The notes below the pieces were generated by a model that did not search any database, had not been told where the DNA came from, and worked only from the letters and a program-made list of their open reading frames with translations. From Candidatus Peregrinibacteria bacterium (lineage in GTDB: Bacteria > Patescibacteriota > Gracilibacteria > Peribacterales > Peribacteraceae), in assembly GCA_043798355.1 (NCBI GenBank), contig JAZDOT010000002.1, positions 1,160 through 65,159 on the forward strand: a stretch of DNA of 64,000 bases, in the 5' to 3' direction. Shown here piece after piece: positions 3,708 to 62,045 of this stretch. How positions within the stretch are numbered: position 1 is the stretch's first letter; the number at the start of each line of letters is the position of its first letter. The translations under genes were made by a program, and so were the position numbers.

Positions 3708-5948
3708 ATGGCCGGACTGCGTTATCTCCACATCATCGTGCCGCAGGGGACGGCGGGGGAGAAGAAGCTGGAGGTCAAGTTCCAGGATCTTCTCGTGAGC
3801 CTGCGCAATACCGTGACGGGTGTGCGGTTTTCGTTCGAATACCTCGGCTACGAGCAGTACACGTACTTCTACGCGGTCATGGAGGAGAAATATATGGAGA
3901 CGATCGAGGGTCTCATCTATGCGACTTTCCCCGATGCCGAGATCCGCGAAACGAAGGATTATGCCGCCTCCCTCGATCCGGCAAGGCATGCATTTGCCGG
4001 ATGCGAGCTTTATCCCAAGGAGAGTGACGTGTATCCCATCAAGACGTACGACAAATTCGAGGAGGACAGCATGTCGCGGCTCTTCTCGGTCCTCTCCAAA
4101 ATAGACAGCGGCGAGCAGGTGTGGGTGCAGATCATCTCGGAACCCAGAGCGGACAACGCCGCCTACCACTTTTTCCACAACCTACGCTTCCGGATCGCCG
4201 GATTCCTGAAGTTCTTCTCCCCGCGGGATCACTTGCGCAAGGAGGGGTACCGAGGCATCCAGGCCGTCCGCGCGAAGGCGGCGCACGCGAAGGACGAGAC
4301 GAAGCCGTACGAAGTCTCCATCCGCTGCGCGTATCTTTCGAAGAATTTCGAAGAGGCGAAGCGGAAGCTCACGGCGGTACAGAACAGCTTCTACCACTTC
4401 AACGATTCCGATATCAACGGGTTCACCTCCTCACGCTCAACCAATGCGGATTCTTTCCTGAAGAGGTACCGCGCGCGCGGGCACGCGAAGAAATTTGTTC
4501 TGAGTTCGATGGAACTGGCCACAATCTTCCACTTCCCGAATGCTGACTACGTGCATCACATCGTGCACGTCCTCGCGCGCAAGTCCGATCCTCCGCAGGA
4601 CCTCCCGCGGGCCGGTGAGAAGGAAGTGAGCACGTTCGGCATCACCAATTACCACAATAACTTCGTGAAGTTTGGCATCCGCCTCGAGGATCGCCGACGC
4701 CATCTCTACGTCGTCGGAAAATCGGGCGTGGGGAAATCGAAGCTCCTCGAACTCCTCATCCACGAGGATCTCGACCGCGGGCGCGGGGTGGCCGTACTCG
4801 ATCCGCACGGGGACCTCGTTGATAACGTTCTCCGGTTCGTTCCGAAGCACCGCATCGACGACGTCGTCCTCTTCGACCCGTCCGACACGGAGTTCCCCAT
4901 CGCCTTCAACCCGCTCGAGCAGGTGGAGGATGCCTACAAGATGCAGCTCACCATCGGCTTCCTCGACATCTTCAAGAAGCTCTTCGGCGATAACTGGACG
5001 TACCGTCTCGAGCACGTGTTGCGCTATACCACGCTCGCGCTCCTCGACAGCCCGAATACCACGGTGCTCTCGATCCTGAAGATGCTTAATGACAAGAACT
5101 ACCGCCAGAAGATCGTGGCGCGCATCCAGGACAACGTCGTGAAGAGCTTCTGGGTCTCGGAGTTCGCCGCGTGGAGCGAAAAGTTCGATGCCGAGGCCAT
5201 CACGCCGCTCCTCAACAAGGTCGGTCAGTTCGTGGCGACGAACATGATTCGCAACATCATCGGACAGAGTGACACGAAGTTCAAAATCCGCGACATCATG
5301 GACGGGAAGAAGATCCTGCTCATGAAGGTGTCGAAAGGACTCCTGGGAGAGGAGAACTCGTCGCTTCTCGGCTCCATGATCATCACGAAGATGTACCAGG
5401 CGGCCATGAGCCGCGCGGACGTTCTCGAGGAGCAGCGCTCTGACTTCTACTTCTACGTGGATGAGTTCCAGAACTTCGCGACGGATACCTTCTACGAGAT
5501 TCTCTCCGAGGCGCGCAAGTATCACCTCAATCTGACCATCGCCCATCAGTACATGGGGCAACTCTCAAGCAAGATCCGCCAGACGGTCTTCGGCAACGTG
5601 GGGTCCATGATCAGTTTCCGCGTGGGGGCGGAGGATGCGACGGTGCTCGAGAAGGAGTACGAGCCGATCTTCAAGGAACGCGACATCATCAACCTCGGTG
5701 TGCGTGAGTTCTACATCAAGATGTCGGTGAAAGGGGAGAGCCGCGATCCGTTCTCCGGCCGGACGGTGGATGTCCCGAAAGTCACGGCGGATCACTCCAG
5801 CGAGATCCGTGCGCTCTCGCGGGCGAAGTACTGCCAGGCGAAGCAGAAGGTGGAAGAGACCCTGAAGAAGTGGGACGAGGCTGCCAGTGCTCCGCCGAAG
5901 GAGGGTGAAGTGGATACGGAAGAGCAGTTCGACGAACCGATTATCTAG
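3708..5948 (+). CDS. VirD4/TraD (type IV coupling protein)-like HerA/FtsK-superfamily P-loop ATPase
   Basis: Walker A is YVVGKSGVGKSKLLE and Walker B is FYFYVDEFQNFA, followed by AHQYMGQL, as in TraG/TraD/VirD4-type ATPases. An N-terminal domain of about 330 aa has no obvious TM helices. Confidence 0.7.
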   Translation: MAGLRYLHIIVPQGTAGEKKLEVKFQDLLVSLRNTVTGVRFSFEYLGYEQYTYFYAVMEEKYMETIEGLIYATFPDAEIRETKDYAASLDPARHAFAGCELYPKESDVYPIKTYDKFEEDSMSRLFSVLSKIDSGEQVWVQIISEPRADNAAYHFFHNLRFRIAGFLKFFSPRDHLRKEGYRGIQAVRAKAAHAKDETKPYEVSIRCAYLSKNFEEAKRKLTAVQNSFYHFNDSDINGFTSSRSTNADSFLKRYRARGHAKKFVLSSMELATIFHFPNADYVHHIVHVLARKSDPPQDLPRAGEKEVSTFGITNYHNNFVKFGIRLEDRRRHLYVVGKSGVGKSKLLELLIHEDLDRGRGVAVLDPHGDLVDNVLRFVPKHRIDDVVLFDPSDTEFPIAFNPLEQVEDAYKMQLTIGFLDIFKKLFGDNWTYRLEHVLRYTTLALLDSPNTTVLSILKMLNDKNYRQKIVARIQDNVVKSFWVSEFAAWSEKFDAEAITPLLNKVGQFVATNMIRNIIGQSDTKFKIRDIMDGKKILLMKVSKGLLGEENSSLLGSMIITKMYQAAMSRADVLEEQRSDFYFYVDEFQNFATDTFYEILSEARKYHLNLTIAHQYMGQLSSKIRQTVFGNVGSMISFRVGAEDATVLEKEYEPIFKERDIINLGVREFYIKMSVKGESRDPFSGRTVDVPKVTADHSSEIRALSRAKYCQAKQKVEETLKKWDEAASAPPKEGEVDTEEQFDEPII

Positions 5949-5981
5949 GGATTAGGATTAGGATTAGGGTTAGGGTTAGGG
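5949..5981 (+). repeat. Hexamer tandem array (ATTAGG x3, GTTAGG x2; TTAGGG-like)
   Basis: gggattaggattaggattagggttagggttaggg begins at the TAG stop of the preceding gene. Confidence 0.9.
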
Positions 5982-6018: not shown

Positions 6019-6043
6019 ATACCACATACCACATACCACATAC
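6019..6043. repeat. Heptamer tandem array (ATACCAC x3.5)
   Basis: ataccacataccacataccacatac abuts the stop codon (6044-6046) of the convergent minus-strand gene. Confidence 0.9.
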
Positions 6044-6697
6044 TTATTCCGGCTTTCTCAGAAACCAGATTCCCACGTAACTCAAGGGCGTGTAGACGAT
6101 GCCCATGCCGACCTTGAAGAGCCACCACGGGATCATGATGAGGATGATGGTTTTCACGGGGTACACGCCGACGAAAGCAATGGCCATCCAGATGGAAGTA
6201 TCGATGAGCTGTCCCCAGAGGTTCGAGAGGTTGGAGCGTAGCCAGAAGAATCTCCCGCCCAACTTCGCCTTGAGGAAGAAGAACGAGAAGACGTCCTGAT
6301 ACTCTCCGACGATGAAGGCAACCAGCGAGGCGACGGTGAAGCGGAACGAGAGGCTGAAAATCTGGTTGTATGCCTCCGGCATGAGAAAATCTTTCGATGT
6401 GGGCATCACGTTCGAGAGCAGATTGAAGCCGAGGAAGACGACGAGGCTCCAGAAGCCCATTTGGACGAAGAGCCGCGCCATCTTCTTGCCGTAGACTTCG
6501 CCGATGACATCGGTCGTGAGGAAGACGAGCGGGAAGGCGAAGATGGCCGTCGAGAGGTGCGTAGAGAAGAGGAACGGCATCAGCTTGATGCCGACGGTGT
6601 TCGATGCGAAGAGGGACGTGAGGTACAGGGTCAGGACGAGGACCATTTTGTAGTCCATGGGGCGCTGCGGCTCGGAAGGGGAGGGGGGAGTGGGCAT
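6044..6697 (-). CDS. YhhQ/DUF165 (VUT family) queuosine-precursor transporter-like membrane protein
   Basis: Polytopic membrane protein with FPLVFLTTDVIGEVYGKKMARLFV and GEYQDVFSFFFLK motifs typical of YhhQ-like proteins. The start could instead be the Met at 6658. Confidence 0.65.
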   Translation of the reverse strand: MPTPPSPSEPQRPMDYKMVLVLTLYLTSLFASNTVGIKLMPFLFSTHLSTAIFAFPLVFLTTDVIGEVYGKKMARLFVQMGFWSLVVFLGFNLLSNVMPTSKDFLMPEAYNQIFSLSFRFTVASLVAFIVGEYQDVFSFFFLKAKLGGRFFWLRSNLSNLWGQLIDTSIWMAIAFVGVYPVKTIILIMIPWWLFKVGMGIVYTPLSYVGIWFLRKPE

Positions 6698-15687: not shown

Positions 15688-16795
15688 TCAGTGCGGATGC
15701 GAGGGCGACCACGATGAGGAGGAGCGCTTCAGCATCGCATCGATGAACTGCTGAATATCCCCATCCAGCACTGCTGTTGTATTACTCGTCTCCACCTCGG
15801 TCCTCAGGTCCTTCACCATCTGGTATGGGTGCAGGACGTAACTTCTGATCTGCTGGCCGAAGTCGGCACTCTCCTTCGCGCCTTTCAGTTCCGACTTCGT
15901 TTCGCTCCGCTCGCGCTGTTCCTTCTCGAGCAGTTTTGCCCTCAGCATGTTCATGGCCTGCTCGCGGTTCTGGAGTTGGCTCCTCTCGTTCTGGCACGCG
16001 ACCACGATCCCAGTCGGCATATGCGTGATGCGGATGGCGCTCTCGACCTTATTCACATTCTGACCTCCCGCGCCGCCGCTCCTATAGGTATCGACTCTCA
16101 GATCCGAAGGATTGATATCCACGGCGGCGGATGCCGGGAGTTCGGGTAAGACCTCCACGAGCGCGAAGCTGGTCTGGCGGAGATTTTTCGCATTGAACGG
16201 CGAGAGGCGCACGAGTCGGTGCGTGCCCTTCTCGCACTTGAGATAGCCGTACGCCAGTTCGCCTTTCACGTGGATGGCGGCCGACTTGATGCCGGCTTCC
16301 TGTCCGTCCGTTTTTTCGATGATGTCCGTCTTCCAGCCTTTCCGCTCGCAGTAGCGTAGATACATCCTGAGCAGCATGGCGGCCCAGTCCTGCGCTTCGG
16401 TGCCTCCCGCCCCGCCGCTCACGGTGAGGTAGCAGTTGAGCGCATCGAATTCGCCGCTCAGGTAGAGCTGCAACTCGATCGTGTTCCAGAGCTCCACGAA
16501 TTTTCCATAGTCCTCCTCGAGCATCGGAACATCGGAAGGATCCGCATGCTCCGCCATTTCCAGGAGCGCCGAGACATCACTCAGCATCTTCGAGACGGGC
16601 TCCCACTGTTTCTTCAGGAGCTTCAGTTCCGTGAAGAGCATGTTGGCCGAGCGTTGGTCGTCCCAGAGGTGCGGGTCGGCAGTCTGCTCTTCGAGCTTCC
16701 GAATGCGCTGGGGTATATTTTTTTTCTCAAAGAGAGTCCTTTCCCGTGTTGATGGCGGACCGGAGTTCACAGAGTTTTTGCAGGAGATCCTCCAC
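15688..16795 (-). CDS. prfB: Peptide chain release factor 2, with programmed +1 frameshift
   Basis: The RF2 body includes [20 protein letters not shown] (the GGQ motif). Frame 0 runs from GTG 16795 as (M)[21 protein letters not shown], then CTT TGA at 16732-16727. A +1 shift continues as [24 protein letters not shown]. The 5' part of the track ORF (16796-16935) is read-through of a repeat array and is not coding. Confidence 0.9.
16727..16732 (-). promoter_or_regulatory. prfB: prfB +1 frameshift site CTT TGA G
   Basis: The minus strand reads GGAAAGGAC TCT CTT TGA GAA. This is the same CUU UGA slippery/stop arrangement as in E. coli prfB, with a purine-rich SD-like tract upstream. Confidence 0.85.
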
Positions 16796-16865
16796 GGGGA
16801 AGGGGGGATGAGGTACGTGCTTAAGCGTAGCCGTGTCTTTCCCGAAGCGGAAGGGGAGGCGGAAA

Positions 16866-16900
16866 GGCTAAGGCTAAGGTTAAGGCTAGGGTTAGGATTA
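16866..16900 (+). repeat. Hexamer tandem array (GGCTAA/GGTTAA/GGCTAG/GGTTAG)
   Basis: ggctaaggctaaggttaaggctagggttaggatta lies between the divergent prfB and the gene at 16977. Confidence 0.9.
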
Positions 16901-16976
16901 CATACTAATAAGAAATTCATGCAATTATTGGCCATGGCTCGGAGGCCGAAAATCCGCTACAATGAGAGGAAAACAC

Positions 16977-45044: not shown

Positions 45045-45602
45045 ATGTACGAAATTACCGATCTCAAACCCGGCAGAGCCATCCAGATCGACGGGATCCC
45101 TTACCTCATTATCTCCTCGCAGTTCGGCCGCAAGAGCCAGAGCAAGGCGAACATGCAGTGCAAGATCAAGAACCTCAAGACCGGAGCGGTCATTCCGAAG
45201 AACTTCCAGGGGAGCGAGCAGATCGAGCAGGCGGACATCGGGTACCGGCACGTGCAGTTCCTCTACTCTGACGGAGAGTCTTTCACCTTCATGGATCTCA
45301 GCAGTTACGATCAGTTTGCGTTGCCGAAAGACGTTGTCGGCGAAGCGGCGAATTACCTCTTCGAGGGGTTGGAACTGGATGCGCTCCTGTTCGAGGAGAA
45401 CCCGATCGGCATCACGCTTCCCTCCACGGTGGACATCAAGGTCATCGAGACGTCTCCGGGCGTCCGCGGAGATACGGCGACGGGCGGGACGAAGCCGGCA
45501 AAGCTCATAAGCGGCTTCTCCGTGGCCGTTCCGCTCTTCATTAGCGAGGGGGACACGGTCAAAGTGAATACGGAGACGGGGGAGTATATGCGCAAGGCGT
45601 AG
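45045..45602 (+). CDS. efp: Elongation factor P
   Basis: MYEITDLKPGRAIQIDGIPYLII...KNLKTGAV...VIETSPGVRGDTATGGTKPAKL..G..V.VPLFI.EGD.VKV.T.TGEY. Confidence 0.92.
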   Translation: MYEITDLKPGRAIQIDGIPYLIISSQFGRKSQSKANMQCKIKNLKTGAVIPKNFQGSEQIEQADIGYRHVQFLYSDGESFTFMDLSSYDQFALPKDVVGEAANYLFEGLELDALLFEENPIGITLPSTVDIKVIETSPGVRGDTATGGTKPAKLISGFSVAVPLFISEGDTVKVNTETGEYMRKA

Positions 45603-45636
45603 GGATTAGGGTTAGGATTAGGGTTAGAGTTAGGGC
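45603..45636 (+). repeat. Hexamer array (GATTAG/GGTTAG x5.5, TTAGGG-like) starting at the efp stop
   Basis: ggattagggttaggattagggttagagttagggc. Confidence 0.9.
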
Positions 45637-45676: not shown

Positions 45677-45727
45677 AATAAGGATAGCGCGTACCATCGG
45701 CGGGACGCCGGTGGGTAAAGGTTCCTA

Positions 45728-51265: not shown

Positions 51266-51522
51266 CGCAGATTCTCTTCACGCCCAGTTTTCTCCGGCAG
51301 TTCAACAAGCTTCCTCCGGAGTTGCAGGACGAAGTCGATGCGGCCGTCCTCCGTTTCCAGTCTCATCCCCGCGATCGTTCACTGAAGTTGCATCGGCTGA
51401 AGGGCAAGCTGCGGCGCTTCTTCAGCTTTTCCGTGAATTACCGTTACAGAATCGTTTGTCAGAACGATGCCCACGATGTCTGGGCACTTCTTTCTGTGGG
51501 GGATCACGATGTATATCGCTAA
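51262..51522 (+). CDS. RelE/ParE-superfamily type II toxin
   Basis: ...LKLHRLKGKLRRFFSFSVNYRYRIVCQNDAHDVWALLSVGDHDVYR. Confidence 0.7.
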   Translation: MTQILFTPSFLRQFNKLPPELQDEVDAAVLRFQSHPRDRSLKLHRLKGKLRRFFSFSVNYRYRIVCQNDAHDVWALLSVGDHDVYR

Positions 51523-51707: not shown

Positions 51708-52454
51708 ATGTCCAGCGATCATCTCCACATCCTCCGCTCGGTCGGGCTCGATCCCAAAGAGGCGGCCCTGTACCTCGCCGGGCTGGAACTACACTCGGCT
51801 CCGGCGTCGGAGTATGCCAAAGCGGCGGGCATGAACCGCATCACCGCCTACAACACGCTCGAAGGGTTGGCGCGCAGGGGAACGGTGACGGTTACCAAGA
51901 AGGCGAGGGCGAAGTGGTACAGTCCCGTTCTTCCGGAACAGCTGGCGATCGAGGCGCGCAAGAATGCCGATGCTCTTGCGCGGGTCCTTCCGGAACTGCG
52001 GTCGATGCAGGGGGGCGGGGGACGACGGCCGGTCGTGCGGTTCTTCGAGGGGTGGGAGGGGCTCAGGAGCGTCTACGAAGACACGCTGACGGCCAAAAGC
52101 GAACTTCTCAATTTCGCGAATTCCGCGGTGGTGCGTCGCTTCTGGCCCGATTATGACGGGGAATACGTTGTCGAGCGCGTACGAAGGGGGATTTATCTTC
52201 GTGGCATAGCACCGGACGATGAGGCCGGGCGGAAGGTCCATGGTGAAGATCGGAAACGCAAGCGTGAAATCCGGCTTGTTCCAGTCAAAGACTTCGATTT
52301 CGGCAATGAGATCAACATCTACGACCACAAGGTCGCTATCTGCTCGTTCGGGTCTCCCGAAAAGATGTTCGCGGTCATCATTGAGAGTAAGGAGGTCGCC
52401 GAGACGCAGAGGCAAATTTTTGAGATGGCGTGGAGGTTTGCCAAAAGCTTGTAG
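51708..52454 (+). CDS. TrmB-like winged-helix transcriptional regulator (paralog 3 of 3)
   Basis: MSSDHLHILRSVGLDPKEAALYLAGLELHSAPASEYAKAAGMNRITAYNTLEGLARRGTVTV... Confidence 0.75.
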   Translation: MSSDHLHILRSVGLDPKEAALYLAGLELHSAPASEYAKAAGMNRITAYNTLEGLARRGTVTVTKKARAKWYSPVLPEQLAIEARKNADALARVLPELRSMQGGGGRRPVVRFFEGWEGLRSVYEDTLTAKSELLNFANSAVVRRFWPDYDGEYVVERVRRGIYLRGIAPDDEAGRKVHGEDRKRKREIRLVPVKDFDFGNEINIYDHKVAICSFGSPEKMFAVIIESKEVAETQRQIFEMAWRFAKSL

Positions 52455-52481
52455 CTTGTAGCTGGTAGCTGGTAGCTTGGG
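52452..52481. repeat. Heptamer array (TAGCTTG/TAGCTGG x4)
   Basis: tagcttgtagctggtagctggtagcttggg. The first unit is the TrmB-3 stop codon, and the array ends 5 nt before the thyA ATG. Confidence 0.9.
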
Positions 52482-52486
52482 GGTCA

Positions 52487-53305
52487 ATGAGACAGTACCT
52501 CTCTCTTCTCGGCCATGTACTCGAAAACGGAGTAAAAAAGAAGGATCGGACCGGTACGGGCACGCTCTCGGTTTTCGGCGCGCAGATGCGCTTCGATCTC
52601 TCTCAGGGCTTCCCGCTCCTCACGACGAAAAAGCTCCACACGCGGTCCATTTTCCATGAGCTCCTGTGGTTCCTGCGCGGTGAGACGAACACGCGCTCGC
52701 TTGCGGAACAGGGGGTTTCCATCTGGGACGAGTGGGCGGATGCAAACGGGGATCTGGGACCGCTCTACGGCAAACAGTGGCGGGATTTCAACGGGGTCGA
52801 TCAGATTGCCTCAGTGGTCGAACAGATCCGTCTGCGGCCGCACTCGCGTCGAATGGTCGTGTCGGCGTGGAATCCGGCTTCTCTCCCGGATGAATCCGTC
52901 TCTCCGCAGGAGAACGTGCGGCAGGGGCGCATGGCGCTCGCTCCCTGTCATTGCCTCTTTCAGTTCTACGTCGCGGATGGGAAATTGAGTTGTCAGCTCT
53001 ACCAGCGCAGTGCCGACCTCTTCCTCGGTGTTCCCTTCAACATTGCCAGTTACAGCCTTCTCACACACATGATCGCGCAGGTGACAGGACTCTCCGTCGG
53101 GGATTTCGTCCATACGTTCGGGGATCTGCATTTGTACTCGAATCACCTGGATCAGGCCCGCGAGCAACTCTCGCGCACGCCTCGTGCCTTGCCGCAGCTC
53201 CGGCTCAATCCTGCGGTCCGGTCGATCTTCTCTTTCACATTCGCGGATTTTGAAGTCCTGAATTACGATCCGCTGTCGGCGATTAAGGCGCCGATAGCCG
53301 TGTAA
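52487..53305 (+). CDS. thyA: Thymidylate synthase (ThyA type)
   Basis: [46 protein letters not shown]...[11 protein letters not shown]...[12 protein letters not shown]...[18 protein letters not shown]. Confidence 0.93.
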
Positions 53306-53339
53306 GGGATAAGGCTAAGGCTAAGGTTAGGGTTAGGGC
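53306..53339 (+). repeat. Hexamer array (GATAAG/GCTAAG/GTTAGG, TTAGGG-like) directly after the thyA stop
   Basis: gggataaggctaaggctaaggttagggttagggc. Confidence 0.9.
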
Positions 53340-53343
53340 AGGG

Positions 53344-53378
53344 AGAGCTTTGAGCTTTGAGCTTTAAGCTTTAAGCTA
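53344..53378. repeat. Heptamer array (GAGCTTT x3, AAGCTTT, AAGCTAT) ending 5 nt before the folA ATG
   Basis: gagctttgagctttgagctttaagctttaagctat. Confidence 0.9.
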
Positions 53379-53383
53379 TTGGC

Positions 53384-53899
53384 ATGATTGTCTCACTGAT
53401 TGTCGCAGCGTCGGAAAACAACGTCATCGGCCGCGAAAACGATCTCCCGTGGAGCTTGCCGGATGACTTGAAATTCTTCCGGGAAAAGACGCGCGGAGCA
53501 CCCGTGATCATGGGGCGGAAAAATTTCGAATCCATCATCCGGCGCAACGGAAGGGCTCTGCCTGGGAGGACCAACATCGTCGTCACACGACAGGCGGATT
53601 GGAAGCACGAGGGGTGCGTCGCTGTACGTTCCATCGAAGAGGCGATCGAGCGGGCTCGGCAGGAGACGCGTGAGGAGATTTTCATTATCGGTGGAGGGGA
53701 GATCTATCGCCTCGCGATGTCGATTGCCAACCGCATCTATCTCACACGCGTGCATGCCGAGGTACCGGGAGACGTGTTCTTTCCGGAGATTTCCTCTGAC
53801 GAGTGGAAGGAAGTCAGCCGACAAGATCATGCCAAAGACGACCGGCACCCGTACCCGTTCACGTTCCTCACCTACGAGCGGCGCAGGAAGAAGCAGTGA
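53384..53899 (+). CDS. folA: Dihydrofolate reductase
   Basis: MIVSLIVAASENNVIGRENDLPWSLPDDLKFFREKT...VIMGRKNFESI...GRTNIVVTR...IFIIGGGEIY. Confidence 0.9.
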   Translation: MIVSLIVAASENNVIGRENDLPWSLPDDLKFFREKTRGAPVIMGRKNFESIIRRNGRALPGRTNIVVTRQADWKHEGCVAVRSIEEAIERARQETREEIFIIGGGEIYRLAMSIANRIYLTRVHAEVPGDVFFPEISSDEWKEVSRQDHAKDDRHPYPFTFLTYERRRKKQ

Positions 53900-59554: not shown

Positions 59555-60490
59555 TTACTGCTGCGCAAGAACGTTTGAGCCCAGCCAGACGTAGGGCAGC
59601 TTCGTCACGTCCCATGGTATATCGCCGCGCCACCGGAAAGAACCGGAGGCAATCGTGCGGGCGGGGATGTGGTCTTCCATCCACCGCAGTTTCATGGCCA
59701 GCGCGCGGTTGCTCTGTGCGCGTTGCACGAAGCTCTCGCGCTGGAGCAGGAAGAACGCGTACGTTTCGGCGAAGTCCTCGAAGGCATCGGAGGCGGAGTA
59801 GCCCGAGACGAAATCTTCCGCGCGCGCTTCGGGATGCTTCTCCTTCGCGCTCTTCCAGGAGATGGCATAGAAGCTCACGCTCGGATCGTCATTCCAGATG
59901 ATCTCGTTCCCGTCACGAAAAGCACTCGCGCCCATTGCGGATGTGCCTGTGAGGCAGCCGAGATCCGTCACATGTCCGAACTCGTGGACGAGGAGTGAGC
60001 GGAATTCATTCTCCTCTACAGAGCCGTCGATGACGATGGAGCTCTTTCCGGCGAGTCCCCGCTGGTTCGGTCTGTCATAGCGCACGACGAATCGTTTGAG
60101 GAAGGGGAGGCATTCGCCCGGGAGAGCGCGCAGGACTTCGCTCGCGAGCAGTTTATCTTCGAAGGTGATGTCGGGTTGGTTCACGATGGGGACGAAGGGC
60201 TGGACCCGCTCCTCTTCCGTGTCATTGGTAATGAGGTGGATCTGAGGGTTAAGGCTAGGGTTAAGGCTAAGGCTAGGGTTAAGGTTAGGGGCGGTTTTGG
60301 CGATCCAGTAGTAACTTCCGGGGTGTTCGGTCTGCGTGCGAGGTCTCGGGCTGACGGAGCGGATGGCCGCTTTATTTGCAGGGGCGATCTCCTGTGCTAT
60401 GCTCCCGCTCGAGAGTACGGTCGAGCTTCCGCCGGTCAGGCAGCAGAGAAGTCCTGTGAGGAAGAGGACATGTGCTCTCATTGGATGCAA
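59555..60490 (-). CDS. Secreted putative zinc metalloprotease (HExxH)
   Basis: It has a signal-peptide-like N-terminus (AHVLFLTGLLCCLTGG) and LLVHEFGHVTD. A hexamer array is translated as NLNPSLSLNPSLNPQ near the N-terminus. Confidence 0.6.
   Translation of the reverse strand: MHPMRAHVLFLTGLLCCLTGGSSTVLSSGSIAQEIAPANKAAIRSVSPRPRTQTEHPGSYYWIAKTAPNLNPSLSLNPSLNPQIHLITNDTEEERVQPFVPIVNQPDITFEDKLLASEVLRALPGECLPFLKRFVVRYDRPNQRGLAGKSSIVIDGSVEENEFRSLLVHEFGHVTDLGCLTGTSAMGASAFRDGNEIIWNDDPSVSFYAISWKSAKEKHPEARAEDFVSGYSASDAFEDFAETYAFFLLQRESFVQRAQSNRALAMKLRWMEDHIPARTIASGSFRWRGDIPWDVTKLPYVWLGSNVLAQQ
60245..60289 (+). repeat. Hexamer array (GGTTAA/GGCTAG/GGCTAA x7, TTAGGG-like) inside the metalloprotease ORF
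   Basis: gggttaaggctagggttaaggctaaggctagggttaaggttagggg. The G-rich strand is on the + strand and the gene is on the - strand. Confidence 0.9.
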
Positions 60491-60521: not shown

Positions 60522-61982
60522 ATGTCAACTATTTCCGAGCCTTCCCCAGTGCCGGTTCACCCCGGGGAGAAGCACATTCTGAGCGTCGAAAAGCTCACGC
60601 AGGGGGGATCCGGCTTGGCACACATCGGCGCAGTCCCCGTCTTCATTCCGGGAACTCTTCCAGGGCAATCCGTTTCGGTCACCATCACGAAGAACCGCGG
60701 GTCATTCTATGAGGCTCGCGTGGAGAGCGTGAAGAGGAAGGCCAAGGATGAGATCCCCGCACGCTGCCCGCACTTCCACGAGTGCGGCGGGTGCGTGTGG
60801 CAGAATCTTCCGTACAACAAGCAGATCGCCTACAAGGAAGATATCGTCCGCGAAACGCTCGAATATCTCACTCCTGCGGAGTCGGCCGTGCGCGCGCGCC
60901 TGCCGGGTCGTGTCCTCAAGATCATCCCCAGTCCGCAGGTGTTTCACTACCGGAACAAACTGGAGCTCACCTTCGGTTTCGAGTCTACGCGGGTGGAGGA
61001 GATCGCCGGGCGCAAAGTATTCCACGATGAGAATCCCAGTATCGGGTTCCACAGTCCCGGACAGTGGTCGACGATCATCCCCATTGCCGAGTGTCACCTT
61101 TACGACGAGCAGATCGCATCACTCCTTTCCGACATACGCCGGTTCATCGTGGACTCGCGCATCCCCGTCTACAACCCGAAGACGCATCGCGGGGTGCTCA
61201 GGACGCTGCTGCTCAGGCGCGGCATCAATACGGGGGAGCAGATGATCGCCTTCATCGTGAAGGCGAGGAAGAAGGAACTGGAGCCCCTCTTCCAGCACTT
61301 CATGCGCTTCGCCGGCCGCTCGGGCCTGAAATCTCTCCTCGTCATTGAAAATATGTCCCTGAATGACAAGCCGGAGAACCCGAAAGTGCACCCGCTCGTC
61401 GGCAAGCCGTTCATCACCGAGCGGCTGTTCGATCTCTCGTTCGACATTTCACCCTTCTCTTTCTTCCAGACGAATACGCTGGGGGCCGAGAAGCTCTACC
61501 AATCGATCGCGCAGGCGGCGGATCTCACGGAGCGCGATATCCTGCTGGATGCGTACTGCGGCATGGGGACCATCGGCCAGTACCTCGCGCGTTACTGTCA
61601 GCGGGTCGTGGGCATCGAGAGTCATCCGACTGCGGTTGAAGATGCACTCAAGAGCGCAGGCAAGAACCGCATCGCGAACATCAGCTTCTACAAAGGCCGC
61701 ACAGAACAGGTGCTCCCCGATCAGCTGAAACCGGACGGCAAATATCACTTCAGCGTTGTTGTTTTAGATCCTCCCCGTGCGGGGCTCCATCCGGATGCGC
61801 GGGATGCCGTGCTCGCCCACGCGCCGAAGAGAATCGTATACGTCTCCTGCAACATTGCCACCTTCGCGCGCGACCTCGGGGATTTCCTGAAGGCCGACTA
61901 CGATCTTCGTTCCGTGCAGCCGGTGGATATGTTTCCGCATACGGCGCATATCGAGACAGTCGCTGTATTACAGAAGAAATAG
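60522..61982 (+). CDS. rlmD: 23S rRNA (uracil-C5)-methyltransferase RlmD/RumA family
   Basis: TRAM-like N-terminus. The Fe-S Cys cluster is CPHFHECGGCVWQ. The SAM-binding motif is LLDAYCGMGTIG. The catalytic region is VVVLDPPRAGL...YVSCN..T.ARD. Confidence 0.85.
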   Translation: MSTISEPSPVPVHPGEKHILSVEKLTQGGSGLAHIGAVPVFIPGTLPGQSVSVTITKNRGSFYEARVESVKRKAKDEIPARCPHFHECGGCVWQNLPYNKQIAYKEDIVRETLEYLTPAESAVRARLPGRVLKIIPSPQVFHYRNKLELTFGFESTRVEEIAGRKVFHDENPSIGFHSPGQWSTIIPIAECHLYDEQIASLLSDIRRFIVDSRIPVYNPKTHRGVLRTLLLRRGINTGEQMIAFIVKARKKELEPLFQHFMRFAGRSGLKSLLVIENMSLNDKPENPKVHPLVGKPFITERLFDLSFDISPFSFFQTNTLGAEKLYQSIAQAADLTERDILLDAYCGMGTIGQYLARYCQRVVGIESHPTAVEDALKSAGKNRIANISFYKGRTEQVLPDQLKPDGKYHFSVVVLDPPRAGLHPDARDAVLAHAPKRIVYVSCNIATFARDLGDFLKADYDLRSVQPVDMFPHTAHIETVAVLQKK

Positions 61983-62001: not shown

Positions 62002-62021
62002 GGGTTAGGGTTAGGGTTAGG
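62002..62021 (+). repeat. Hexamer array (GGGTTA x3)
   Basis: gggttagggttagggttagg starts 20 nt after the rlmD stop. Confidence 0.85.
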
Positions 62022-62045
62022 AAACTGGAAATTTGGAACGCGAAA

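Follow-up and report, generated by a model that had tools for sequence, protein, structure and literature searches.

Repeat arrays in the window

Six short tandem arrays of a G-rich hexanucleotide resembling TTAGGG, the vertebrate telomere repeat, lie in a 64,000-nucleotide (nt) stretch of the genome of a Candidatus Peregrinibacteria bacterium of the family Peribacteraceae (GenBank assembly GCA_043798355.1, contig JAZDOT010000002.1, positions 1,160 to 65,159). This whole stretch is called the window below, and positions in it are counted from its first letter. The arrays had been noticed earlier from the sequence alone, and all six were found again, each with the G-rich strand on the + strand. 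The consensus given in that original prediction, GG[GCAT]TTA[GA], did not hold as a hexamer: it has seven letters and gave no tandem match, and the true unit is the 6-mer [T/C/A]TA[A/G][G/A][G/A]. The pattern (HTARRR)3 had 18 overlapping matches in the window, 18/18 on the + strand, and none in 100 dinucleotide-preserving shuffles of the window. Two further arrays just past the window on the same contig (C36) are also on the + strand, so that the contig has 8/8 arrays in this orientation.

Four of the arrays start at, or no more than 20 nt after, the stop codon of a + strand gene, as had been stated. In array 1 (5946..5981, + strand, about six units of TTAGGA and TTAGGG) the first TAG (5946-5948) is the stop of a + strand open reading frame (ORF, 3708-5948) encoding a TraG/VirD4-like ATPase. 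Array 3 (45600..45636, + strand) begins with the native TAG stop (45600-45602) of efp (45045-45602), and array 4 (53303..53339, + strand) with the TAA stop (53303-53305) of thyA (52487-53305), from where it occupies the first half of the 78-nt spacer between thyA and folA. Array 6 (62002..62022, + strand, 3.5 units) is located 20 nt past the TAG stop (61980-61982) of an RNA methyltransferase gene on the + strand (60522-61982).

Array 2 (16866..16900, + strand, with the units CTAAGG, TTAAGG, CTAGGG and TTAGGA) is located in a divergent spacer, within the leader of a - strand gene for an RF2-type release factor, and is C-rich in the sense of that gene. The longest ORF of the gene (15688-16935, - strand) over-extends through the array. 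Its first ~70 residues are not release factor-like and include translated repeat, and thus the true start, or a +1 frameshift site, presumably lies further in; a programmed +1 frameshift site is typical of prfB. Array 5 (60245..60290, + strand, seven units) lies inside a - strand ORF (59555-60490), where its C-rich strand is translated in frame as NLNPSLSLNPSLNP behind a signal-peptide-like N-terminus. The product is a putative secreted zinc metallopeptidase (weak Peptidase_Mx matches), and the array encodes part of its linker, which is not conserved in the sister genome G080.

None of the six array regions gave a better RNA fold than shuffled controls (z +0.2 to -1.5). Terminator-like sites were not enriched in the window, and canonical intrinsic terminators were fewer than in shuffles.

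The repeat family in the genome

The analysed genome (G000) is that of a tiny groundwater bacterium of the Candidate Phyla Radiation (CPR). It is a fragmented metagenome-assembled genome (MAG) of 1.38 Mb in 48 contigs, 99.4 % complete. With a dedicated regular expression 71 TTAGGG-like arrays of 3-11 units were found in it, 37 on the + and 34 on the - strand, spread over 26 contigs; all of them are internal and 18-66 nt long. The unit is mainly TTAGGG, TTAAGG, CTAAGG or TTAGGA, and the family can be written as ([T/C]TA[A/G]G[G/A])n. Genome-wide the units were counted as TTAGGG 141, TTAAGG 57, CTAAGG 55, TTAGGA 52, CTAGGG 11 and ATAGGG 8. In the flanks of the arrays only decayed units were seen, with no conserved unique sequence or target duplications.

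Weak G-quadruplex (G4) potential had been ascribed to the runs of GGG, and this description is fitting, as the canonical motif (four GGG runs, loops ≤7 nt) is present in 15 of the 71 arrays and in none of the six in the window. With only these 15 qualifying, G4 capacity as judged by the motif appears to be the exception, and it was rejected as a general property of the arrays.

The TTAGGG-like arrays are not the only short-unit repeats of the genome. Tandem Repeats Finder reported 302 rows of period 7 and 133 rows of period 6, and its merged output contains 324 arrays with at least three copies, so that ~250 other arrays of 6-7 nt units exist besides the 71. A small set of units recurs, and AACCCT/AGGGTT is the biggest hexamer family. 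A search of the literature found neither TTAGGG-type arrays reported from bacteria nor tandem repeats reported from Peribacteria.

MutS was not found in G000, the one genome tested for it. No MutL C-terminal domain was found in G000 or in the related genomes G023, G095, G096 and G049, and no Rho RNA-binding domain in G000; the genomes searched for these three proteins are 97-99 % complete. The lack of detectable MutS, MutL and Rho is consistent with the abundant 6-7-nt arrays and with non-Rho termination.

Arrays and gene boundaries

Local gene geometry explains the orientation of the arrays best. According to our own gene calls, made with a crude dicodon model (1101 genes, 84 % of the genome), 45 of the 71 arrays are located in tandem spacers, 15 in a convergent and 11 in a divergent context. 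In the tandem spacers the C-rich strand corresponds to the gene sense in 29 cases and the G-rich strand in 16. Of the 53 arrays cleanly inside spacers, 36 have the 5' end of their G-rich strand nearer to the gene and 17 the 3' end (p = 0.013), with median gene distances of 8 and 64 nt, respectively. With the G-rich strand turned to the closest ORF by its 5' end, transcripts have the G-rich version of the repeat directly after the stop codon and the C-rich version before the start codon. A transcription-linked process had been set aside in the original prediction; the 36:17 preference speaks against this, gene boundaries, and with them transcription and translation, being a stronger determinant than the replication strand.

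At 25 same-strand gene ends beside arrays the stop codons were TAG in 15, TAA in 6 and TGA in 4 cases, compared to a genome-wide usage of 23 % TAG, 24 % TAA and 52 % TGA, and thus the array's own TAG or TAA usually serves as the stop. Among these gene ends only one ORF reads through an array. At opposite-strand gene starts, 21 arrays were counted within 30 nt of a start; in these cases the C-rich repeat and the start codon are 2-20 nt apart, which leaves no space for a Shine-Dalgarno (SD) site. Out of 11 such genes with an ortholog in G023, eight align with it from residue 1. By the same gene calls, leaders are G-poor and pyrimidine-rich throughout the genome.

Related genomes

The relatives were sampled only around their arrays. 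In a comparison of 41 relatives, exact (TTAGGG)3 was frequent in G000 and G023 and in no other genome. A degenerate four-unit pattern was present in 21 of the 80 other genera of the family, with at least five matches in about ten of these, while a reversed-pattern control was near zero. Candidatus Peribacteria/Peribacteraceae MAG loci with (TTAGGG)4 had 55-70 % amino-acid identity and local synteny with G000. In bacterial assemblies of other phyla, many long (TTAGGG)4 runs were located on short contigs or at contig ends; these have the appearance of eukaryotic telomere DNA contaminating MAGs and draft genomes, unlike the arrays of G000.

On a single-gene tree of ThyA from 30 genera the array-bearing genomes were scattered. 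Six changes are needed, of which well-supported branches force at least four, and the scatter was no better than with shuffled labels. The well-supported sister of G000 on this tree, G080, is syntenic with 44-63 kb of the window and has no hexamer arrays. The stop codons of efp, of thyA and of the methyltransferase gene have the same positions in both genomes, and the hexamer array behind them is found only in G000; the efp stop of G080 is TAG, as in G000, without the array. Since the sister genus has the same stop codons and no arrays, the arrays are recent. An array was found at 6 of 43 orthologous gene ends in G023 compared to 47 of 611 background ends, and positional conservation with this relative was rejected as not significant (p = 0.15). 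By these comparisons, the arrays are evolutionarily young and turn over: they are absent at the stops of the sister, not kept in position in G023 and patchy on the family tree.

The surroundings of thyA contain other short-unit repeats. Upstream of the gene, the heptamer AGCTTGT forms a 5-unit tandem in G000 (window 52446-52479), where G080 has two or three single copies of it at scattered places, a visible case of in-situ expansion from seeds. Downstream, thyA and folA overlap (ATGA) or are 0-20 nt apart in many of the 30 genera. In G000 the rest of their spacer, up to the folA start at 53384, is taken by a heptamer array of about five GAGCTTT/AAGCTTT units (53345..53377, + strand). At the same place G080 has (TAGCTTT)4, which is related to the array of G000, and the junction contains (TAAGCTG)4 in G021 and inverted arrays with a purine arm and a pyrimidine arm in G095 and G079. 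The junction has been filled repeatedly and independently by different units in several genera.

Many arrays in G023, G095 and G096 are inverted pairs, in which a G-rich arm (G-arm) is followed by a C-rich arm (C-arm) 17-110 nt further on. A sample of 670 kb of G023 contains 19 such pairs, in all gene contexts, and none in the reverse order, and G000 has one inverted pair within 200 nt. At no fewer than 16 loci of G023 a common core of ~30 nt lies between the arms in either orientation (AAAyyGyTyTGATyGTCC..GCrAy), and it occurs almost only there. Composite hairpins consisting of G-arm, core and C-arm were seen on contigs C5 and C6 of G023, for example at G023:C5:45295-45365, 51345-51428 and 280118-280217. 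BLAST and profile searches did not find the core in G000, and it was also absent from the sampled stretches of G095 and G096. G023 gave no match to Y1 or Y2 transposases.

Strand polarity

The replichore was taken as the sign of the strand-balanced GC skew, which is our own approximation on a fragmented MAG, and the G-skewed strand was presumed to be the leading one. With skew calculated over 30 kb, the G-rich strand of the arrays was on the G-skewed strand in 49 of 71 cases (one-sided p = 0.014 by permutation of whole-contig flips; 0.026 without the discovery contig). The corresponding counts were 51/71 with raw local skew and 47/70 with skew balanced between + and - genes. Orientation clusters by contig, not only in C36 but also in C21 (6/6 on the - strand), C14 (5/5 +) and C24 (4/4 -), and adjacent arrays were alike in 31 of 45 pairs compared to a permutation mean of 22.3 (p = 0.005). 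Contigs C30, C25 and C39 as wholes contradict the skew. The density of the arrays is 1 per 19 kb.

Gene strand is not the cause of the skew bias, since 51 % of the genes lie on the G-rich strand and the arrays in convergent and divergent spacers agree with the skew by 18:8. In tandem spacers, lagging-strand genes had 21 C-sense and 6 G-sense arrays, and leading-strand genes 8 and 10. Differential decay by cytosine deamination was rejected as a source of the polarity: unit purity was equal in skew-concordant and skew-discordant arrays (Fisher p = 0.50) and polarity was independent of unit type.

In an unbiased octamer scan of the oriented blocks (~1.0 Mb of G000), TTAGGG-derived words were distributed ~31:14 (69 %) in favour of the G-skewed strand, and all words with G-C ≥ 3 averaged 58.7 %. 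The most polar octamers were the GAGGGGAG family (107:20, 84 %), AGAGGGGA (108:27) and AGGGGAGG (74:15). KOPS, or architecture-imparting sequences (AIMS), are polar G-rich octamers read by FtsK, and an FtsK with gamma domain is encoded in G000 (C32:22133-22312). The three octamer types are, together with this domain, candidate KOPS-like signals of the lineage.

The dominant arm of the arrays in G023, G095 and G096 (64 loci) agreed with the skew by 25:20, and unpaired arrays by 11:11; the polarity thus does not belong to the repeat family as such. On contig C6 of G023 the GC skew switches near 215-220 kb and the dominant arms flip there, and on contig C5 they run against the skew. The leading-strand bias is thus real but weak, and specific to this genome. 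The original prediction had read the common orientation of the six arrays as a sign of a replication- or strand-linked process, to be checked by mapping all arrays against GC skew. Non-random orientation was indeed seen in G000 (49/71), but the bias is weak and was near even in the three relatives. The window, with all its arrays on the + strand, shows a local run of this weak tendency, which is little stronger than that of any G-rich word.

Other repeats

The spacer of array 1 also contains a heptamer array outside the hexamer family (ATACCAC, 3.6 copies, 6019..6043, + strand), which adjoins the stop codon of the convergent - strand ORF 6044-6697. A recurrent GC-rich hairpin motif, GC[AG]GCCGTTCCTGGC[CT]GCGG, is found in 15-25 copies in the spacers of G000, for example at C14:71063-71082, C14:57174-57193 and C18:26734-26753, and in the window at 45683-45697 (C36:46842-46856). 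Two other hairpin motifs of the spacers are GCCCTGAGCGRAGCCGAAGGG, in 8 copies, and GATAGCGCGTRCCAT with a stem behind it, in 5 copies. For about one third of these small motifs a TTAGGG-like array is found no more than 60 nt away, the motif being on the gene-distal side of the array. The motifs are possible REP-like or terminator-like elements.

Discussion

G-rich heptamer repeats have been described in Xanthomonas (GGGAATC) and Nostoc/Anabaena (GGGGA(C/T)T), where they are 68-93 % intergenic. An ORF is found ~28 nt from the 5' side and ~160 nt from the 3' side of the G-rich repeat, whatever the orientation of the ORF, and the G-rich strand is coding after stops and non-coding before starts. 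The heptamers are found alone or in convergent inverted pairs (70-75 pairs in each Xanthomonas genome, few in Nostoc), they have no leading/lagging preference, 83 % of the positions are common to two Xanthomonas species, and a function has not been established (Rehm et al. 2015, PLoS One, PMC4692102). The arrays of G000 resemble these repeats in having a short G-rich unit, in forming dispersed and mostly intergenic tandem arrays of a few to ~10 units, in the 5' side of the G-rich array being nearer to the ORF (28 compared to 160 nt there, 8 compared to 64 nt here), and in the G-rich strand being coding after stops and non-coding before starts. Convergent pairs of the same type are represented by one case in G000 and by 19 in G023, and are also found in G095 and G096. 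There are differences as well: the unit has six nucleotides instead of seven and equals the vertebrate telomere repeat, only 15 of the 71 arrays fit a three-tetrad G4, and the host belongs to the CPR and has a genome of 1.4 Mb. Unlike the Xanthomonas repeats, the arrays of G000 have a weak leading-strand bias and are not kept in position from one genus to another, and inverted pairs are almost lacking in G000 itself.

Direct repeats of TAACTGA, described in Beggiatoaceae, cyanobacteria and Bacteroidetes, stop shortly before start codons without an SD site and have a patchy distribution (MacGregor 2015, PMC4679880). As with these repeats and with the cyanobacterial STRR elements (heptanucleotide long simple sequence repeats, SSRs), the spacers of G000 contain many short-unit arrays with stop codons in them. 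The hexamer arrays share with TAACTGA repeats that they often end a few nucleotides before SD-less starts, and that they are patchily distributed with no known mechanism of dispersal. In contrast to the hexamers, TAACTGA repeats point forward to the start codon and bring a stop into each of the three frames. The hexamer stays in a single frame, which allows translation through it, as seen in the peptidase ORF.

Taken together, the arrays are probably a dispersed G-rich hexanucleotide SSR family of the class known from Xanthomonas and Nostoc, that is, gene-end microsatellites grown by slippage and filtered by selection. Their origin and growth would be due to replication slippage, or to small tandem duplications with a TAG-GG-type sequence as the seed, in a lineage that would be without mismatch repair. 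Selection would then act as a filter at gene ends, where an array reaching the end of a gene would be kept only if it provides an in-frame TAG or TAA. G-rich, SD-like repeats would not be tolerated just before start codons, because the genome uses G-poor leaders. The likeness to the vertebrate telomere repeat is coincidental.

Some observations weigh against such an origin. Slippage alone leaves the recurrence of one unit family at 71 sites and in ~10 scattered genera unaccounted for, and chance 12-nt seeds are far too rare. The other G/C-asymmetric repeat families of the genome have no skew preference (117/209 overall; AGGGGG 1/9, GGTTTTT 3/14), which makes an explanation of the polarity by generic composition incomplete, and the coherence of orientation within contigs (31/45) is somewhat above what a 69 % skew preference predicts. 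The crude gene calls, on which the boundary counts are based, are a further point of this kind.

It is possible, although rather unlikely, that a small non-autonomous mobile hairpin element, consisting of G-arm, core and C-arm, spreads among gene junctions, the arrays being its arms or footprints and those of G000 its single-arm products; strand-specific insertion during replication would then yield the orientation bias. The unit specificity and the patchy phylogenetic spread fit dispersal better than independent birth, and nearly all arrays of G023 are pairs in a single arm order, at least 16 of them with the core. Such composite hairpins resemble repetitive extragenic palindromic (REP) sequences, bacterial interspersed mosaic elements (BIME) and hairpins like those of miniature inverted-repeat transposable elements (MITE) in being dispersed, intergenic and multi-copy. 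They differ from these in that the arms are slippage-prone tandem hexamers and not a fixed palindrome, and that neither RAYT/Y1 nor any other transposase correlates with them. G000 itself has a single pair, no copy of the core and no conserved flanks or target duplications. Across the family, Y1 transposases were found in 8 of 11 array-bearing genomes and in 57 of 81 overall, with none in G023 or G095, and reverse transcriptases in 4 of 11 array-bearing genomes and in 22 of 81 family genomes, and therefore both enzymes were rejected as partners of the arrays. A search for IS91-type Y2 transposases in five genomes gave no match, with the positive control equally silent.

A role as functional RNA or DNA punctuation is likewise doubtful. 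In that case C-rich, G-free leaders would aid SD-independent initiation, and in a genome that lacks Rho, G-rich tails or G/C hairpins would terminate transcription, stabilise the mRNA or serve for coupling. The C-rich arrays close to verified starts with no space for an SD sequence, the G-poor leaders, the failure to find Rho and the low number of canonical intrinsic terminators are all in line with this. In G023 the G-arm after a stop and the C-arm before the next start would pair, and TAACTGA repeats take the same pre-start position in Beggiatoaceae (PMC4679880). However, the same genes work without arrays in the sister genus, thyA and folA overlap directly in many genera, array positions are not conserved, and the six regions of the window fold no better than shuffled sequences. 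Furthermore, inverted pairs occur in every gene context and not in operons alone.

It is unlikely that an undescribed way of seeding and spreading of xTAGGG arrays operates, in which a hairpin element would colonise junctions and cross genera without a recognisable transposase. The 71 arrays of G000 would then be its products, and the residual bias would come from strand-specific insertion or retention.

Replication-oriented polar signals of the KOPS/AIMS or Chi type, or a product of a replication-strand-specific process, are very unlikely. The arrays are G-rich like KOPS and commoner on the G-skewed strand, an FtsK with gamma domain is present, the agreement with skew is kept in symmetric spacers and the arrays on contig C6 of G023 flip at the skew switch. 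KOPS, however, have a polarity above ~80 % with a switch at origin and terminus, whereas the arrays are tandem, confined to gene boundaries and only 69 % polar, which compares with 84 % for octamers of the GAGGGGAG type and 59 % for any G-rich octamer. Their polarity is not reproduced in relatives, where contig C5 of G023 is opposite; three contigs of G000 contradict the skew, and the density of the arrays is low for such signals.

Three reverse transcriptases are encoded in G000 (C47:11721-12860, C18:6556-8334 and C14:40819-41889). Their best match was a group II intron reverse transcriptase/maturase model, below cut-off; they may be of the type found in diversity-generating retroelements (DGR), and none of them is adjacent to an array. 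A relation to telomeres (a telomerase-like reverse transcriptase, binding by Myb/TRF proteins, or relics of linear ends), or an origin as eukaryotic contamination or assembly artefact, is extremely improbable: although the unit is identical to that of vertebrate telomeres, reverse transcriptases are present and the relatives also have the head-to-head order of G-arm and C-arm, the arrays are short (3-11 units) and are found at 71 internal sites, between bacterial genes or inside them, and not at contig ends as the contaminants often are, the variants CTAAGG and TTAAGG are as common as TTAGGG and dominate many arrays, the reverse transcriptases are group II- or DGR-like without co-occurrence with arrays across genomes, and neither a telomerase-type enzyme nor, in the search proposed with the original prediction for Myb/SANT-like repeat-binding proteins, any Myb/SANT or TRF protein was found in the genome.

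The striking "bacterial telomere repeat" is thus a look-alike, which behaves like the G-rich heptamers of Xanthomonas and Nostoc. For annotators it is of importance that such arrays can supply stop codons, occupy expected ribosome-binding sites and be read through in frame, and that they also break assemblies. The rule that the 5' end of the G-rich strand is turned to the gene has now been seen in a CPR bacterium with another unit length, which suggests that it may be general for G-rich bacterial microsatellites, and that these are tied to gene boundaries and not to replication.

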